From a bacterium (lineage in GTDB: Bacteria > Electryoneota > Electryoneia > Electryoneales > Electryoneaceae): 64,000 nt of DNA. Below the pieces are notes generated by a model. That model was not told where the DNA came from, made no database searches, and worked only from the letters and a program-made list of their open reading frames with translations. The number at the start of each line of letters is the position of its first letter. Position 1 is the stretch's first letter. Shown piece after piece: positions 25,240 to 33,759 of this stretch. Position numbers and translations under genes: made by a program. Where the stretch lies: assembly GCA_963675295.2 (NCBI GenBank), contig CAXXKJ010000002.1, positions 3,488,001 through 3,552,000 on the forward strand. Direction: 5' to 3'.

Positions 25240-25466
25240 AACCACGGAATACACGGAAAAGCAACTGACGTCCACGAAAACCGCGAAAATGAAACGAAAA
25301 AACAAAAGAAACATCTTTATGAATAAATCATAATGGATCGAATTATGCAGCATTATTTATATTTATCATTATCTGTATTATCAATTATTATAGGTTGTTT
25401 TCGCTTATTTTCGTGCATTTTGTGGACTATCATCTTTTTTCCGTTTATTCCGAGTATTCCGTGGTT
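25240..25466. repeat. Nested imperfect inverted repeat around an AT-rich core
   Basis: AACCACGGAATACACGGAA / TTCCGAGTATTCCGTGGTT and inner GTCCACGAAA..GCGAAAAT / ATTTTCGT..TTTTGTGGAC. Confidence 0.7.
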
Positions 25467-25481
25467 GAGGAGAGGTATTTG

Positions 25482-26474
25482 ATGGCATACAAAACGCTTA
25501 TTCTCGGTGGAACGGGTTTCATCGGGCATCATATCGCGCGTGAGTTGCTCGCGAAGGGTCATACGGTCCGTGTGCTGGCGCGTGCGGGCGGCGACCGGTC
25601 GTTGCTCAAGGGGATGGATGTCGAGATCGTGGACGGCGACCTCAGCGACTCGTCCTCCCTGCTCGCGGCGCTGGAGGGCTGTGACGCGTTGATCCACGCC
25701 GCCGCGCACTACCCGGTGTGGTCGTTGGACGCCGACCGTGAGGCGGAACTCGGGCGTCAACAGATCCTGCGTGTGCACGAGGCGTTGGCGAAACATCCGG
25801 TCGAACGCTTTGTCTACGTTTCCGGGCCGGCTGCGGTCGGGCGCTATCCGGACGGGCGTCCGGCGGACGAAGACGCGCCGTGGCCGGAGGAACGCCGCAA
25901 GTCGGCGTATGCACGGGTGAAACGTGAGATGCAGGACCTGGTGCTGTACAACGCGCGGCGGACGAATGCGACGGTGGTTGTCCCGACCGGCACCTTCGGC
26001 CCGGGGGATCGCAAGCCGACGACCGGCCAGTTGATCGTGGACATCGCGGCCAACCGTGTGCCGGTGGCGTTGCACGGACGCACGAACGCGGTGTCGGTGT
26101 TCGCGGTGGCGGACGGTGTGCGGCGGACGTTGGAACAGGGCGCGGTCGGGCGGCTGTATGTGCTCGGGGACGAAAACCTGACGGTGCTCGAGCTGTGCAC
26201 ACGGATCGCGGATATCGTCGGCGTGCGCGCGCCACGGCTGGGCCTGTCGCCGGACATTCTGCGGCCGGTCGCGGTGATCGGGGAACACCTGGCGCGGCGG
26301 ATGCGGAAAGACCGTCCCGCGGTGCCCGTGGTCGGCCTCGACTTCGCGCTGTTCGGCACGCACCTCAGCAGCGACGTCGCGCGGAACGAACTGGGCTATG
26401 ATCCGTCGGCGTATCCGCTGGACGCGGCGCTGAAGGACGCGTGGGAGTGGTTCAAGGATCAGGAGATGGTGTAA
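25482..26474 (+). CDS. NAD-dependent epimerase/dehydratase (HpnA/dihydroflavonol reductase-like)
   Basis: GGTGFIG, HAAA, YARVK (YxxxK), FGPGDRKPT. Confidence 0.9.
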   Translation: MAYKTLILGGTGFIGHHIARELLAKGHTVRVLARAGGDRSLLKGMDVEIVDGDLSDSSSLLAALEGCDALIHAAAHYPVWSLDADREAELGRQQILRVHEALAKHPVERFVYVSGPAAVGRYPDGRPADEDAPWPEERRKSAYARVKREMQDLVLYNARRTNATVVVPTGTFGPGDRKPTTGQLIVDIAANRVPVALHGRTNAVSVFAVADGVRRTLEQGAVGRLYVLGDENLTVLELCTRIADIVGVRAPRLGLSPDILRPVAVIGEHLARRMRKDRPAVPVVGLDFALFGTHLSSDVARNELGYDPSAYPLDAALKDAWEWFKDQEMV

Positions 26475-26581
26475 GTTCATGGGTCGGTACAGGTTCAGGG
26501 ATTGGCCGGACCCGTTGCGCGGCGTCTCCGTTCCCCGGAACGGATTCTGCGTGGTAGCAGCGAATACAAGGGGGGATGATC

Positions 26582-26695
26582 ATGGCACAGCTGGTGATGT
26601 TAGGCGATTTCTTTCTGGGGCTGGGCGTTTTGCTGATCGGCCTCGCGGCGTTGTGGGGCGTGGCGGTGTGGAACGAAAAGGGGAAGAAGGGGTAG
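26582..26695 (+). CDS. Small single-TM protein (37 aa), below the ORF-track cutoff
   Basis: MAQLVMLGDFFLGLGVLLIGLAALWGVAVWNEKGKKG*; G-rich RBS 6 nt upstream. Confidence 0.55.
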   Translation: MAQLVMLGDFFLGLGVLLIGLAALWGVAVWNEKGKKG

Positions 26696-26763
26696 CACGT
26701 TTAGCTTTATATAAAACTAATATTATATAATATCTAAAAATACATTATCAATATAACCGGTTA

Positions 26764-27723
26764 TTAAAATTCGATGTATTGAAACAATTTTTGTTCAGAT
26801 TCTGGTAGCCGAGATATCAGTTTAACGTAATAACGCCGATTTATCGGCTTTATAAACGAAAGATACCCATATATTTTCATCCTCATCATTTTTTTGTCAT
26901 CAGTATCATTTTCTAACTTATTGTAGTGATATATCATTGATCGTATTGTACGGTATTTTCTCCTACCAACACTAACTTTATCATCATGTACTATTAAACC
27001 AGTTACTAATTTTCTCATTCCCGGCCCCATGATCCTTGTTTTCTCACTGTTTATTTTAAATTCTTCATCATTTACTATTTTTCCTACACCAATTCTTGCT
27101 TTACAAATCAGTTTTATATTATTTCCAGATATTGACATATCATCCGCGTATCTGCTATACGAAAGGCCTCTGGTTTTACAGTATCTATCTATTCTCTTAT
27201 CCATTATTTTAACTACTAAATTTGAAATCGCTGGTGATGTGGGAGCACCTTGAGGGAGCACTCCATTTCTTGTACAAAGTTTTGAAAGCATAAATGCAGC
27301 TTTATTACTGTATCCTAAATATCTGAATAGTAAGAATACGCGTTTTAAAGTAATACTGGGAAAAAAATCCTTTATATCAAGACATAATACAAATTTATTT
27401 CCCATATGAGCCTCTGCATTATCTATTATTGAGTATCCATATCTAAACCCTGTTGCATTATCGGGTAAATATATGCCAACTGGATCTAATACTCGTCTTA
27501 ATATCCATTTTTGTATCCCCTTCAACGTTGTTAATGGCGCATCTATGGCTCTATTTCCTCCGTTCTTTTTTTCAATATTAAAATGTATATAATATCTTGA
27601 TGAATCTTTAATAATATTAAATAATAAATATTTTGAAACACGTAATAAATAACTTAGCTCTTCCAAGGAATCGAAATCTGGAAGTTCCTCTACCTGGGCA
27701 ATATGTTCTGCAATCGGATCCAT
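26764..27723 (-). CDS. Retron-type reverse transcriptase
   Basis: YADD catalytic motif, LPQGAPTSPAISN, retron region X NAEAH (NAxxH), region Y VTGL; 319 aa. Confidence 0.95.
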   Translation of the reverse strand: MDPIAEHIAQVEELPDFDSLEELSYLLRVSKYLLFNIIKDSSRYYIHFNIEKKNGGNRAIDAPLTTLKGIQKWILRRVLDPVGIYLPDNATGFRYGYSIIDNAEAHMGNKFVLCLDIKDFFPSITLKRVFLLFRYLGYSNKAAFMLSKLCTRNGVLPQGAPTSPAISNLVVKIMDKRIDRYCKTRGLSYSRYADDMSISGNNIKLICKARIGVGKIVNDEEFKINSEKTRIMGPGMRKLVTGLIVHDDKVSVGRRKYRTIRSMIYHYNKLENDTDDKKMMRMKIYGYLSFIKPINRRYYVKLISRLPESEQKLFQYIEF

Positions 27724-27738
27724 GACTGTTTAAAAAAG

Positions 27739-27892
27739 GGATCGGAGTGAACTTTCCTAACTCTGAGAAATCCGTCAACTAAGCGACAGCCGAGCGAAGG
27801 CTGTCGCTTAGTTGAACGAGAGATGCTACATAACCTCATGGACGGCGCAACACCATCCGTAGTGTTCTAAGGAAGTGTAAACACTCCGATCC
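27739..27892 (-). ncRNA. Retron msr-msd non-coding RNA
   Basis: Perfect 11-bp a1/a2 repeats (GGATCGGAGTG at 27739-49, CACTCCGATCC at 27882-92); 17-bp msd stem 27775-27815; msr stem GGAUGGUG-UUG-CGCCGUCC; CCUUAG candidate branching G at 27867. Confidence 0.88.
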
Positions 27893-27899
27893 GCAGCCC

Positions 27900-28787
27900 T
27901 CAATAAGCATCTAGAATGTAGTTGCTTCGAATTAAATCAAAAGATGTAGAATGTTGTATTGTCTTTTTAACCAATCCTGACACAAAAGCATACCCTTGAC
28001 TTGTAATTTCATAATTATACCCCTGTACTTTTAAATACAAATCATTTATTAAAATATTTAACGATATAGGGATATTTTCATCTGCAACTTTTTGTGAATC
28101 AGGTATATTATGCAAATCAAGTAAGTATTTATACGCATCTATCAATATAGGTTCCGGAAACATATCAACAAATGAAGAGAAAAACAAGACAAAAAACTTT
28201 ATCTCAAGAGGATTTGATATAAAATCTTCTAATGATGTCTTCTTATCTCCAACAATTTTCCTTACTGCACTATGAATGTTTTTTATGATCTGCTTGCTGT
28301 ATTCATCGCTTAATATATTATCAAGATCATAGTATATAATTATGGAATCAGTATGTTTATCAAGATATCTAACGGGACCTTGCATTATAAAACTATTAGC
28401 ATTTTTGTATTGTTCATCAACTAAAACTATTAATTTATCTTTAAGTTTTTCATGATTTGTGAAGGATCCTAGCTCTGTAAAAGATCCAGGACTCTCTGGT
28501 ATGATTAAAACTGACTCCACACTTGACGCTAGTGTATTTTCTAATTCTAGTAGATTATATTTTTTACCTCTATATAGTAGATCTGTAAAAATATGTTCAG
28601 GATAATACACTTCTACATCAAAACCATATGCCTTTATTTCTAAAAGCCTATTTTTTATAATTTTTCTGATTGATTCTTGTTCATTAATGCTTTTACCAAC
28701 AATAAATAATTTTATCCTTTTTTCTATTAGGCTAGGATATATAAGGTCTAATGTATCCCTTGCTATATTTCGAGTCGTCGAATTCAT
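27900..28787 (-). CDS. Retron effector, NDT-like N-terminus plus wHTH-like C-terminus (Ec86/St85-like)
   Basis: YYPEHIF, NLLELENTLA, IIPESPGSFTELGSF, SFIMQGP; C-terminal YEITSQG; abuts the ncRNA. Confidence 0.85.
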   Translation of the reverse strand: MNSTTRNIARDTLDLIYPSLIEKRIKLFIVGKSINEQESIRKIIKNRLLEIKAYGFDVEVYYPEHIFTDLLYRGKKYNLLELENTLASSVESVLIIPESPGSFTELGSFTNHEKLKDKLIVLVDEQYKNANSFIMQGPVRYLDKHTDSIIIYYDLDNILSDEYSKQIIKNIHSAVRKIVGDKKTSLEDFISNPLEIKFFVLFFSSFVDMFPEPILIDAYKYLLDLHNIPDSQKVADENIPISLNILINDLYLKVQGYNYEITSQGYAFVSGLVKKTIQHSTSFDLIRSNYILDAY

Positions 28788-29072
28788 GTCTTTGGCTCAC
28801 TTTTCTTGCATCCATCCCGAAGAGGACTGACGTGAAAACGCTGACAAGAGGAACCTATGGTAAGATATGCTCAATTAGTCGAGAAATCAATACTCTGAAC
28901 TTTACTTATATAAACCTATCAGGAATAGTTTTCGAAGGCCCTTTACCTAGCCTTCATTTGATTTACATCGAATTGAACTTTTCCTCTCCTCGTGGCCTCT
29001 ACTGGTAGACGGGTGCATGGGACGTCGTGTGGGTCGGCGTGCCTGTGTGGATCTGAAGCTGGAGAGGAAACC

Positions 29073-30794
29073 ATGAAGCAACCACGTTTGAATCGCACAT
29101 CCAGGCCGCACAGGGCCAGTACGTCTGAGCCGCACAGAGCCAGTACGTCGAAGCCGCGCAAAGCCGGTACTTCAGTGCCGTATAAGTCCACCGTTACCGA
29201 ATCCGCGTTTGCGAGCAAACACGGCCACGTATCAATGCACGGGCGGCTGACCCGCACCAGCCAGCTGGTACGGGCACACACACCAAGGGCGTACAACCTC
29301 CTCGCGTCCGCGTCTGCAAGCAGACACGGCCACGTATCAATGCACGGGCGGCTGACCCGCACCAGCCAGCTGGTACGGGCACACACACCAAGGGCGTACA
29401 ACCTCCTCGCGTCCGCGTCTGCAAGCAGACACGGGCACGTATCTCACGGGCACATATCTCACGGGCACGTATCTCACGGGCACATATCTCACGGGCACGT
29501 ATCTCCCCGGAACATGCCTAGCGGATCAGCCGCGTTTGCAAGCAAACACGGGCACTTATTTATCCACCCCATCCTGACGATCGTGTTGCTGCTGATGCTG
29601 ATCGCGGCGATACCGGGCTGCACACCGCGTGCGTCCGAAGAGATTCCGCGGCCGGAGGAGATTGTAAGCAAGCGGGTGATCGTGTATGACCAGCCGACGT
29701 ACGACGACCTGTCGCAGAAGTGGTCGGCGTATTATGACGCGTTCCCGTCGGAATACGCGTACGCCAACTGGATGTACGCCGCGCGGTATGCGAAGTGGGA
29801 CGATTACGAGACGTTGCTGAAGCGTGGGCTCAGCCTCTACCCTGCCAACCCGACGTTGCTGTACCTGATGTCGATGACGTTCGGCAACGGGTCGGAGGAC
29901 GCGCTGGCGTACACCGAGCGTGCGATCTACCTCGATCCGGGGTATACCGACCCGTATTTCAACCTCGTCGGCGAGGCGATGGCACGTGGCGACGACGAAC
30001 GCACGCGGACGGCGTTGGCGAAACTGCTCGAGCAGGGCGCGGTGGACGACCTCGTGCTGGATTACGGTTACAACATGCTGGCGACGTTGCAGCCGGACGC
30101 GATCCTGATCACGAACGGCGACAATGATACGTACCCGTGCTGGATTCTGCAGCAGGAGCTGGGGATTCGCACGGATGTGAACGTGATCAACCGGTCGTTG
30201 CTGAACACGGCGTGGTACCCAGGGTATGTGATCGAGCGTGGCGCGCCGCCGTTCATTCCGTTGGGCGAGGTAGACGCGTTCCAGGCGGAACACAAGGCGG
30301 AGTCCGGCGATCAACTGATTCTGCGGATCGTTGATGCGGCGGAGAAGCAGGGCCGGCCGGTGTATTTCGCGGCGACGATGTATGAAACTCCCGCGATCCA
30401 GCCGTTGATGGAGGATGCGCCGTTGTTCGGGCTGTCGCTGCTGGTCAGCGATCCAGGGCGGGACACGGATATCGACGCTGAACGGGAACGAGCCGCGCGG
30501 GTTATTCTGGACGAGTATCGCACGCAGGCGTTGCAAAGTTGGCGGACCCGGTACGCGTCGAAAACGGTCGCGGCGGGAGTGTCGATCTCGCGGAATTATT
30601 TCTACGCGACGTACGATCTGGCGACACATCTGGACTCGCGTACCTTGCAGCGTGACCTGTTCTTCTGGAATCGGGACAACACGTTCGGGCTGTTCGACGC
30701 GACCTCGGAGGACAACATGAAACGGGCGTGGTGCCGGATCGAGGGAGTCCCGGAAATCCGGGCGTGGTGCGAAGGTGAAGGCTACGAGGAGTAG
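29073..30794 (+). CDS. TPR-like protein with DUF2723/TMEM260-like soluble domain; repeat-expanded N-terminus
   Basis: AILITNGDNDTYPCWILQ..GIRTDVNVINRSLLNTAWY motif; hydrophobic stretch ending IPGC; GGAGAGG RBS before ATG 29073 (alternative start 29514). Confidence 0.65.
   Translation: MKQPRLNRTSRPHRASTSEPHRASTSKPRKAGTSVPYKSTVTESAFASKHGHVSMHGRLTRTSQLVRAHTPRAYNLLASASASRHGHVSMHGRLTRTSQLVRAHTPRAYNLLASASASRHGHVSHGHISHGHVSHGHISHGHVSPRNMPSGSAAFASKHGHLFIHPILTIVLLLMLIAAIPGCTPRASEEIPRPEEIVSKRVIVYDQPTYDDLSQKWSAYYDAFPSEYAYANWMYAARYAKWDDYETLLKRGLSLYPANPTLLYLMSMTFGNGSEDALAYTERAIYLDPGYTDPYFNLVGEAMARGDDERTRTALAKLLEQGAVDDLVLDYGYNMLATLQPDAILITNGDNDTYPCWILQQELGIRTDVNVINRSLLNTAWYPGYVIERGAPPFIPLGEVDAFQAEHKAESGDQLILRIVDAAEKQGRPVYFAATMYETPAIQPLMEDAPLFGLSLLVSDPGRDTDIDAERERAARVILDEYRTQALQSWRTRYASKTVAAGVSISRNYFYATYDLATHLDSRTLQRDLFFWNRDNTFGLFDATSEDNMKRAWCRIEGVPEIRAWCEGEGYEE
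29104..29556. repeat. Compound repeat cluster: 24-bp x3, 105-bp period REP-like hairpins, 15-bp x5
   Basis: CCGCGTYTGCRAGCARACACGG at 29203, 29308, 29413, 29530; CACGGGCACRTATCT x5 at 29430-29504. Confidence 0.88.
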
Positions 30795-31961: not shown

Positions 31962-32133
31962 GCAGATGACTTGCTATTGAAATCGGACGAATTCTCGTGA
32001 ATCGTATCGAATTCTCACAGCGATGTACTCCATGATATGGCGTGTCTTTTTGTCTTGCTAACAAGTTGTATTTCTTGCCAGTTGGAGCTAATTTACATAG
32101 GTACTTACACAATCACCCAATCAAGAGGTCGAC

Positions 32134-33759
32134 ATGAAACACGTATGGTCGTTGCTACTCCTCCTTTTTCTCTGCTTCCCTTCCCTTGCTCAACCACCTG
32201 AGATCGCCTGGTCTGTCAACGTCGGTGTGGTCATGGAGAGTGTCCGTCCGATAGAACGGGAAGGAGTGATCTGTGCGGGCAGTGGACAACTGGTCCGTCT
32301 GGACGATGACGGAAACATTCTCTGGACTCACGATCTCGCGCTATCGCGCTCACTCGACATGGAAGTCTGCATGGACGGTGGTTTCATCATCGGTGGTAGT
32401 GCGATGGGTGGCGATAATGCAGGCCGGATCATCAAAACCGACCGGTTCGGAGAAGAAGAATGGCGTTATGATTATGATGGACTCTGGGGTGAATGGTTTT
32501 ATGAGGTGACTCAGAATGCGAACGGTAGCATTACAGCTTTGGTAAACGGCGAAAACTCTGCTCAATATGTATTTCGACCAGACGGGACGTTGATTACCAG
32601 TTATAGCACCAATAATCATTATATTAAATCTTATCAAAACTGTAATATTGTATTTAATTATTATAGAAACGATTATTATGGTGTTTACTATGATGATATT
32701 TGGAAAACAAGTTTTTACGGAAACTCCTGGACACACAGTTTCTCGTTCAGCAATGATTCAAGGTGTTATTCGGCGATACAGACGTCAAATTATCACATCA
32801 TTCTGGCTGTCCGCTACGATTCCGAGCAACAGCTGGTCGTGTTCAATCCATGGGGACAGGTTCTTCGCGAACATCCAATCACTGATTTTCCTGGAACCAT
32901 CTTTTGGATGCATGAGACAGCCGATCACAAGCTGGTCCTCGCCGGAAGTCGGTCCTATCCCACGCCGGCGACCATGTACATGATGAAAATTGACCAGAAC
33001 TATGAGGTGGAGTGGTCGACAAATCACGTATTTCAGGCCGGGACAACTATAGTGGCCGATTTCTGTGCGACGAGTGACGGTGGGTATGTATTCACCAATG
33101 GCACATCCATTCTCAAATACAGTCCTGAGTTGACGGTCAACATTTCGCCGGAGACGAACGTCGTGCCGTCGAGTGGCGGTACAATCGTCTATGATGTCAC
33201 GTTGAACAGCCGGTTGAACGACGAGGAAACACTCGACCTGTGGCTGCGGGTGTACGGCCAGCATCGCCGAGCACATGTCAGCCATCTCGGCGAGATGACG
33301 ATTGAACCGGGCACAGTGGAAACATACACGGATTCGGTATTGATTCCCGCCTCCCTGCTGGATGGGGAGTATTTCTGTCGTTTCCACGCCGGCAGTTTTG
33401 AACCGAAGATCGTGATGGGATCGAACCGATTTGCCTTCACGAAGGGCGGGTCGGGTGTTGCTTCAGACGATCAGCTTGAGGTGAAGGTTGACCTGCCGCG
33501 TGTGATGTCAGTGGAAAGTTATCCGAACCCGTTCAATGCGATGACGACAGTGCTTGTTGACTTGGCGCGACAAACGGATTTACGTGCTGAAGTGGTCAAC
33601 GTCATGGGGCAGCGGGTGGCGGTGCTCGCGGCTGGACGGTTCGAAGCGGGCGAGTACCGGTTCGAGTTCGATGGCACCGGGCTGAGCAGCGGGATTTACC
33701 TGGTGAATGTTCAGGCCGGACGTGAACGGATACAGCAGAAGGTCATGCTGCTGCGTTGA
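32134..33759 (+). CDS. Secreted propeller-like protein with T9SS/Por-type C-terminal domain
   Basis: Signal peptide; DGGFII/DGGYV repeats; SYPNPFNAMT...LSSGIYLV...QKVMLLR. Confidence 0.85.
   Translation: MKHVWSLLLLLFLCFPSLAQPPEIAWSVNVGVVMESVRPIEREGVICAGSGQLVRLDDDGNILWTHDLALSRSLDMEVCMDGGFIIGGSAMGGDNAGRIIKTDRFGEEEWRYDYDGLWGEWFYEVTQNANGSITALVNGENSAQYVFRPDGTLITSYSTNNHYIKSYQNCNIVFNYYRNDYYGVYYDDIWKTSFYGNSWTHSFSFSNDSRCYSAIQTSNYHIILAVRYDSEQQLVVFNPWGQVLREHPITDFPGTIFWMHETADHKLVLAGSRSYPTPATMYMMKIDQNYEVEWSTNHVFQAGTTIVADFCATSDGGYVFTNGTSILKYSPELTVNISPETNVVPSSGGTIVYDVTLNSRLNDEETLDLWLRVYGQHRRAHVSHLGEMTIEPGTVETYTDSVLIPASLLDGEYFCRFHAGSFEPKIVMGSNRFAFTKGGSGVASDDQLEVKVDLPRVMSVESYPNPFNAMTTVLVDLARQTDLRAEVVNVMGQRVAVLAAGRFEAGEYRFEFDGTGLSSGIYLVNVQAGRERIQQKVMLLR

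Follow-up and report, generated by a model that had tools for sequence, protein, structure and literature searches.

Two adjacent genes on the minus strand of the analysed stretch of DNA (the window, 64,000 nt), one coding for an effector protein and one for a reverse transcriptase (RT), are separated by a gap of 176 nt. This gap contains a structured stretch of 154 nt (positions 27739–27892, minus strand), and the order of the locus is effector gene, structured gap, RT gene. From the letters of the DNA alone the stretch had been read as an msr-msd structure with a candidate branching G (termed the sequence-only reading in the following). The locus raises the question whether the gap harbors the noncoding RNA gene of a retron and, if so, of which type. 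We consider it highly probable that the stretch is the msr-msd RNA gene of an intact type II-A3 (Retron-Eco1/Ec86-like) retron. The retron is new and deep-branching; type II-A3, a kind of bacterial anti-phage system, is itself already known.

The RT open reading frame (26764–27723, minus strand, 319 aa) was identified by profile matches (Pfam RVT_1, 5.7e-24; PADLOC RT_II-A, 3.9e-104; NCBIfam NF038233, 273.3 bits, cut-off 235), by matches to solved structures and by its motifs. The best match to a solved structure is the RT of Ec86 (8.8e-58, 199 bits), compared with 118.9 bits for Ec67, 118 bits for Kva2, 94.5 bits for Ec83 and 93.3 bits for Ec78. The protein bears the sequence NAEAH (NAXXH of region X), YADD, and VTG in region Y, and the columns of H106, Y192–D195 and T241–G242 are invariant in alignment A1. 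NAXXH and VTG are described as retron-specific RT motifs in passages of PMC7736814. In a search of 5.8 billion proteins, with 8000 candidates scored, the nearest RT among the 7849 proteins at E <= 0.001 was 44% identical. Only weak partial matches (E 4.6e-7 or worse) were obtained in 40 related genomes, and no comparable RT was found in them.

The effector open reading frame (27900–28787, minus strand, 295 aa) had no match in the Pfam copy searched, but belongs to the family of the Ec86 effector and is NDT/RcaT-like. It was recognized by PADLOC NDT_II-A (2.2e-60) and NCBIfam NF038232 (137.5 bits, cut-off 100), and its best match in the PDB is the Ec86 effector (7.6e-27, residues 24–272 aligned with 29–273). 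This alignment spans residues 24–272 of 295, and the C-terminal DNA-binding part was judged from the alignment alone. The glutamate of the motif SFTELG (E105) aligns with the glutamate that is replaced by alanine in chain 8qbl_G, a variant in the PDB. In the search of 5.8 billion proteins the closest relatives of the effector were 39–46% identical, over part of the length only. Both open reading frames are full length and have kept their catalytic motifs.

We then considered the gap itself. The outer arms a1, GGAUCGGAGUG (27882–27892, minus strand), and a2, CACUCCGAUCC (27739–27749, minus strand), match as a perfect inverted repeat over 11 nt and are 132 nt apart; a1 is paired in both the minimum free energy and the centroid structure, and a2 ends 15 nt before the RT start codon. 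Further inward the arm ACUUCCUUA (27868–27876, minus strand) ends in the family motif CUUA, aligning with the YUUA of the relatives described below, and faces the arm UUAGGAAAGU (27751–27760, minus strand), for which the family consensus begins UAAG. The first base past a1 is G27867 (minus strand), the candidate branching (priming) G, which is position 29 of a 161-nt RNA starting at 27895 and falls into an invariant column of alignments A3 and A5. Opposite to it and directly 5' of a2 lies G27761 (minus strand), the G of the family motif G/UAAG (the slash marks the boundary of the arm); its column is invariant in A3, and its placement follows the register that keeps this motif. An msr hairpin, GGAUGGUG-UUG-CGCCGUCC (27840–27858, minus strand), with 8 bp including two G-U pairs and a 3-nt loop, is present in both the minimum free energy and the centroid structure. 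It is followed by an msd hairpin (27775–27815, minus strand) with a 7-nt loop and a perfect stem of 17 bp, whose arms 27775–27791 and 27799–27815 are 100% complementary; this hairpin was found by the inverted-repeat search as well as in the fold. The sequence-only reading had described the perfect a1/a2 pairing, the msr stem, the msd stem with its loop and the candidate G of CCUUAG, and all of these were recovered by the repeat search, the fold or the alignment to the invariant column.

The sequence-only reading had also proposed an imperfect inner extension of the a1/a2 helix. This extension is present but marginal, as it adds just 2–3.5 kcal/mol to the outer helix, and its register is ambiguous by 1 nt. 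The two registers differ little in energy (−63.6 to −65.1 versus −64.3 kcal/mol; outer helix alone, −61.6 kcal/mol). The ambiguity lies at the start of a2, which reads UUAGG in the window versus UAAGG in the family. In the register keeping the conserved G, U faces U at the second pair from the branch, a pair that is standard or G-U in 21 of 21 relatives; in the alternative register, shifted by 1 nt, pairs one to three are formed and the fifth is a C-A mismatch. A division of the a1/a2 helix into two parts, likewise proposed beforehand, recurs in the relatives L001, L020, L025/L040, L028 and L029.

Folding, which had been named as a check on the proposed structure, bore it out. The 161-nt RNA has a minimum free energy of −72.9 kcal/mol compared with −43.05 ± 3.99 kcal/mol for 200 dinucleotide shuffles (z −7.48), none of which folded as well. 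The predicted msd stretch folded as DNA gave −21.6 kcal/mol (z −6.45). We also considered the folding energy as a means to assign the strand and rejected it, as the plus strand folds equally well (z −7.84 versus z −7.48 for the minus strand). The minus strand is favored because of the two G-U pairs of the msr hairpin, which are lost if the hairpin is read on the plus strand, the orientation of the genes and the covariance-model match described below. Promoter-like sites were not above chance (9 versus 10.8 expected), and the host probably uses other promoter types. A terminator scan of the locus returned no terminator-like site, and Rfam gave no match at E <= 1 on either strand of 26000–30000.

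For comparison, 9 loci were gathered from genome contigs, 80 from metagenomes and 80 from viral contigs (loci are labelled L with a number). With tblastn, 40 of 175 loci showed a homologue of the effector lying upstream of the RT and in the same orientation; ten of these 40 were duplicates, leaving 30 distinct relatives. A common layout was present in 21 of the 30: a long-range a1/a2 helix ending in YUUA/G, an 8-bp hairpin, a long msd hairpin, and an a2 preceded by G. The 8-bp hairpin has a U-rich loop and begins 10–51 nt past the G in these 21 relatives. The scan did not find the layout in the remaining nine (L007, L027, L036, L039, L046, L058, L074, L078, L100), several of which have weak effector matches and gaps of more than 400 nt; L074 was later matched by a covariance model. 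The end of a1 varies to CUAA/G in L101 and to CUCA/G in L019, each with a matching change in a2. In L101 (1853–1946) the a1 end CUAA/G is combined with an a2 reading G/UUAG, a double compensatory change at the very pair that is U-U in the window. Judged by these letters, the a2 of the window looks like the L101 form, paired with a standard a1.

A MAFFT alignment (A2) of 16 loci, one of them the window, was analysed with RNAalifold, which found a 12-bp a1/a2 helix adjoining the G and the 8-bp hairpin, with compensatory changes in 16 of 23 pairs. Of the 296 cells in these two helices (a1/a2 and msr), 95.9% hold standard pairs, compared with 38.8–48.9% when the partner is slid by 1–3 columns, and both sides change in 14 of 20 pairs; in these pair counts the rows of L019 and L022, which are misaligned at a1, were counted as gaps. 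The covariation score was reached by none of 500 shuffles. For the msr hairpin alone, 98.4% of the cells of its 8 pairs are paired and 5 pairs show changes on both sides. In the aligned sequences the covariation supports the a1/a2 and msr helices. Structural conservation in homologous loci, on which the sequence-only reading had staked its proposal, was thereby seen across the 16 loci for the a1/a2 helix next to the G and for the msr hairpin.

The conserved UUAG could have been kept as a stop codon. Indeed, in nine of 22 loci, Ec86 included, the candidate branch G is the final base of the TAG stop codon of the effector gene (2311–2313 in L018), and in these nine loci the effector frame and a1 overlap. 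UUAG is not kept merely as a stop codon, because the G is not a stop base in 13 of the 22 loci; the window is one of these, its G lying 33 nt beyond the effector stop.

Covariance models across homologous loci, also named beforehand as a check, gave a divided result: the msr module was recognized in the window and the full-length RNA was not. The full-length model (R1) was built from 13 relatives with the window left out. Its best match in the window was the msr hairpin alone (10.1 bits, E 2.1; E 0.54 with filters off), and no significant full-length match was found there. Among the 169 other loci R1 found the loci it was trained on, near-duplicates and L022, which had been held out, but it missed five of six hand-identified members outside the training set (L019, L028, L029, L099, L101). 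R1 is too narrow a model, because hand-identified relatives were missed as well. The second model (R2), for which 16 relatives were used and the window was again left out, was confined to the msr module, running from 12 nt of a1 through the G and the spacer to the hairpin. Its top match in the window (27879–27834, minus strand) covered the whole model with 20.7 bits and E 0.0098, a rough value like all R2 E-values since the calibrations were shortened; the next match had 11.9 bits. R2 places G27867, within CUUAG, in the invariant branch-G column. In the 4.8-Mb genome this match was the sole one at E <= 10 (genome-wide E 0.74, equally rough). In the 169 other loci all 33 matches of R2 at E <= 0.1 were on the strand of the RT and upstream of it. 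The msr hairpin was the top match in the window with both R1 and R2.

By analogy with Ec86 we infer how the RNA would be transcribed and primed, where its msDNA would end and what part it would play in defence. The RNA would be transcribed from the minus strand, with or just after the effector gene. Its ends would pair through the 11-bp outer helix and the weak inner helix ending in CUUA, and the conserved 8-bp msr hairpin would be bound by the RT. The 2'-OH of G27867 would prime the RT, with the template beginning just 5' of a2 at about 27762. The RT would copy the 17-bp msd hairpin and halt a few nucleotides 3' of the msr hairpin, giving a branched msDNA of about 69 nt. As long as no phage disturbs the msDNA, its complex with the RT would keep the NDT/RcaT-like effector in an inactive state.

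The size of this putative msDNA was estimated from Ec86. We take Ec86 reverse transcription to end 10 nt 3' of the msr hairpin. With this offset applied to the window, an msDNA of about 69 nt (bounds 54–78 nt) is predicted; the predicted msd template would be 27762–27830 on the minus strand, with outer bounds 27762–27839 and its 3' limit set by the Ec86 analogy. The estimate agrees with the 60–80 nt given in the sequence-only reading. Between the msr hairpin and a2 lie 78 nt in the window versus 76–142 nt in the relatives, an interval among the shortest of the 22 compared, with only that of L019 shorter (76 nt). The msd letters contain no GATC, no CCWGG and no 4-bp palindrome.

The surroundings of the locus differ from the cassette in base composition. 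The cassette (about 26695–28990, about 2.3 kb) has a GC content of about 30% in a genome of about 62% GC and lies between an epimerase gene (25395–26474, plus strand) and an open reading frame of 600 aa (28992–30794, plus strand). No tRNA was found in the window, and no match to a mobility family was obtained for the two flanking genes. This low-GC islet between the two flanking genes, with no tRNA and no mobility match, suggests a recent horizontal acquisition of the cassette. A perfect 11-nt inverted repeat, AATTCGATGTA and TACATCGAATT (26768–26778 and 28964–28974), brackets the cassette; we rejected it as the end of a mobile element, as by our estimate 2.9 kb of sequence should contain about one repeat of this kind by chance. 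The flanking 600-aa protein had no close orthologue in three genomes of the same genus, and its best match elsewhere was 44%. Contigs from four sequencing runs of one study carry a stretch identical to the window and are possibly its source; they showed no variants, ends or depth signal at the stretch.

Some further features of the neighborhood were observed. The 600-aa open reading frame contains three tandem copies of a 24-nt unit (29105–29176), which are 71–100% alike. The nearest named matches of the epimerase are labelled as Bacteroidetes and Calditrichaeota MAGs. Antisense to the epimerase gene runs an open reading frame of 375 aa (25353–26480, minus strand) that has no family match and is rich in Arg, His and Pro; it most likely does not represent a gene. 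The GC content dips a second time (0.39–0.50) at 32000–32800, at the start of a 541-aa open reading frame with a T9SS C-terminal sorting domain. With this sorting domain and the epimerase matches, the host resembles an uncultured member of the FCB group.

We considered two alternatives to an intact, G27867-primed retron RNA. First, the RNA could be a real retron RNA that is primed elsewhere than at G27867, or it could belong to a copy that was acquired recently and has ceased to produce msDNA in this host. This might be due to the mismatch near the branch, to the absence of P2 (the additional msr hairpin of Ec86) or to the lack of a detectable RNase H1 in the host. The U-U at the second pair from the branch does set the window apart from all 21 relatives, the inner register is ambiguous by 1 nt, and the cassette stands out from the genome by its GC content as given above. 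Moreover, RNase H1 (PF00075) had no match in the genome of the window, which is 92.8% complete, and excerpts from PMC8989520 report that Eco1 needs RNase H1 for precise termination of its msDNA; a control search with PF00075 gave a match in 9 of 14 reference genomes. On the other hand, both open reading frames are full length with catalytic motifs, the invariant-G column aligns to G27867 and the outer helix is followed by UUUAC, there being no other G at any helix end. The genome also carries two genes of the RNase HII family. As to P2, the spacer between G and hairpin lacks it in L001 (10 nt) and L019 (13 nt) as it does in the window (8 nt), and P2 is dispensable in the family because these two P2-less relatives exist. 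We regard this first alternative as improbable. Second, it is very improbable that the stretch is no retron RNA at all and represents either a palindrome with a regulatory or terminator-like role between two co-transcribed genes or an inverted repeat that arose by chance in AT-rich DNA, since, although both strands fold equally well and neither Rfam nor the full-length model R1 gave a significant match, no terminator-like site is present, position, order and motifs match 21 relatives with covariation, the top R2 match lies inside the 176-nt gap, and the region upstream of the effector gene is unstructured (28788–28990; z −1.54, 15 of 200 shuffles as good).

The preferred reading remains that of an intact type II-A3 retron. 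The locus combines sequence features that define a retron: an RT with the retron motifs and, next to its gene, a structured RNA closed by a1/a2, with a conserved G, an msr hairpin and an msd hairpin. A reading that goes further, and that we regard as rather improbable, is that of a minimal deep-branching II-A3 retron without P2 and with a single-hairpin msd, in an FCB-group (Bacteroidota-like) genome with no detectable RNase H1, which, if active there, would respond to a phage cue other than the Dam or Dcm methylation known for Sen2 and Eco1 and would have its msDNA finished without RNase H1.

The case illustrates that a retron RNA, its candidate priming G and the approximate size of its msDNA can be called from raw sequence alone. 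The locus extends the Ec86-type retrons by a divergent member from the high-GC, Bacteroidota-like genome of an uncultured bacterium, on which one can test what the RNA of Ec86 could do without. The compact RNA (154 nt, with one msr hairpin and a single, perfect msd hairpin) could be of use as a small scaffold in retron-based DNA production. The known working of retrons is unchanged by this locus.

How the retron relates to known systems was assessed first for Retron-Sen2 (St85, type II-A1). Its effector and that of the window are both of the NDT/RcaT family and share their NCBI family names. The gene order of Sen2 is ncRNA, effector, RT, which the abstract of PMC11701397 supports. We tried this II-A1 layout, with the ncRNA 5' of the effector gene, on the window and rejected it, as the region 28788–28990 is not structured. 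Table 1 of PMC7736814 places the II-A1 RTs, like those of type I-A, in clade 1. The clade-1 RTs of Ec78 and Ec83 score about 93–94.5 bits against the RT of the window compared with 199 bits for Ec86, and by score ranking only, the RT of the window lies closer to that of Ec86 (clade 9) than to those of clade 1. The reported trigger of Sen2 is the Dam methylation site GATC (excerpts of bioRxiv 10.64898/2026.10.13.758329).

For the comparison with Ec86, the Ec86 locus was taken from E. coli BL21(DE3), where the RT was located with the RT of the window as query and annotation and sequence were read. Both loci have the order effector, ncRNA (about 170 nt in Ec86), RT. The sequence-only reading had likened the CCUUAG context and the GGAUG stem to the Ec86 msr, and this likeness was indeed seen in the BL21(DE3) locus. 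Ec86 carries CACCCUUAG, its a1 end reads UGCGCACCCUUA followed by G, and a1 thus ends in CCUUA/G as in the window. The G after CCCUUA is presumably the branching G of Ec86. In Ec86 as in the window a2 (UAAGGGUGCGCA in Ec86) is preceded by G, and it ends 6–15 nt before the RT start in the two loci. The msr hairpin of Ec86, GGAUGUUG-UUU-CGGCAUCC, is its P3, to which the msr hairpin of the window is equivalent with 16 of 19 nt identical. The RTs are 38% identical.

The two loci differ in several respects. The window lacks the P2 hairpin, and its G is separated from the hairpin by 8 nt versus 29 nt in Ec86. Its a1/a2 helix has two parts, whereas that of Ec86 has 12 continuous bp. The msd of the window is a single perfect 17-bp hairpin, with 78 nt between msr hairpin and a2 versus 95 nt in Ec86. 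The branch G is the last base of the effector stop codon in Ec86 but lies past the effector stop in the window. The msd of the window is also without CCWGG, the Dcm site that excerpts of bioRxiv 10.1101/2023.08.16.553469 give as the trigger of Ec86. The RT-DNA of Eco1 is given as 85–86 nt in passages of PMC8989520.

Type II-A3 is described in PMC7736814 (Table 1 and Discussion) as the combination of an NDT-like effector and a clade 9 RT, with Eco1 and Vc137 as examples, and its ncRNA class is labelled IIA3 and assigned there to Proteobacteria and Firmicutes. The window shares with this type the NDT-like effector, the gene order, the ranking of the RT and the msr module recognized by R2; the features of the type that were not found are recognition by the full-length model R1 and the presence of two msr hairpins (P2 and P3). 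Judging from the sequences of L001 and L019, which also lack P2, two msr hairpins are not universal in the II-A3 group, and P2-less forms may already be among the IIA3 consensus structures of PMC7736814.

L001, a II-A3-like locus in Rossellomorea sp., was compared with the window as well. It differs from the window by its msd stem, which is imperfect and longer, and by the start of its a2, which is the standard UAAG preceded by G (G/UAAG). Its RT is 37% and its effector 42% identical to those of the window. With an ncRNA of 163 nt, compared with 154 nt in the window, L001 has the same two-part a1/a2 helix, the same absence of P2, the same end CUUA/G of a1 and the same 8-bp hairpin.
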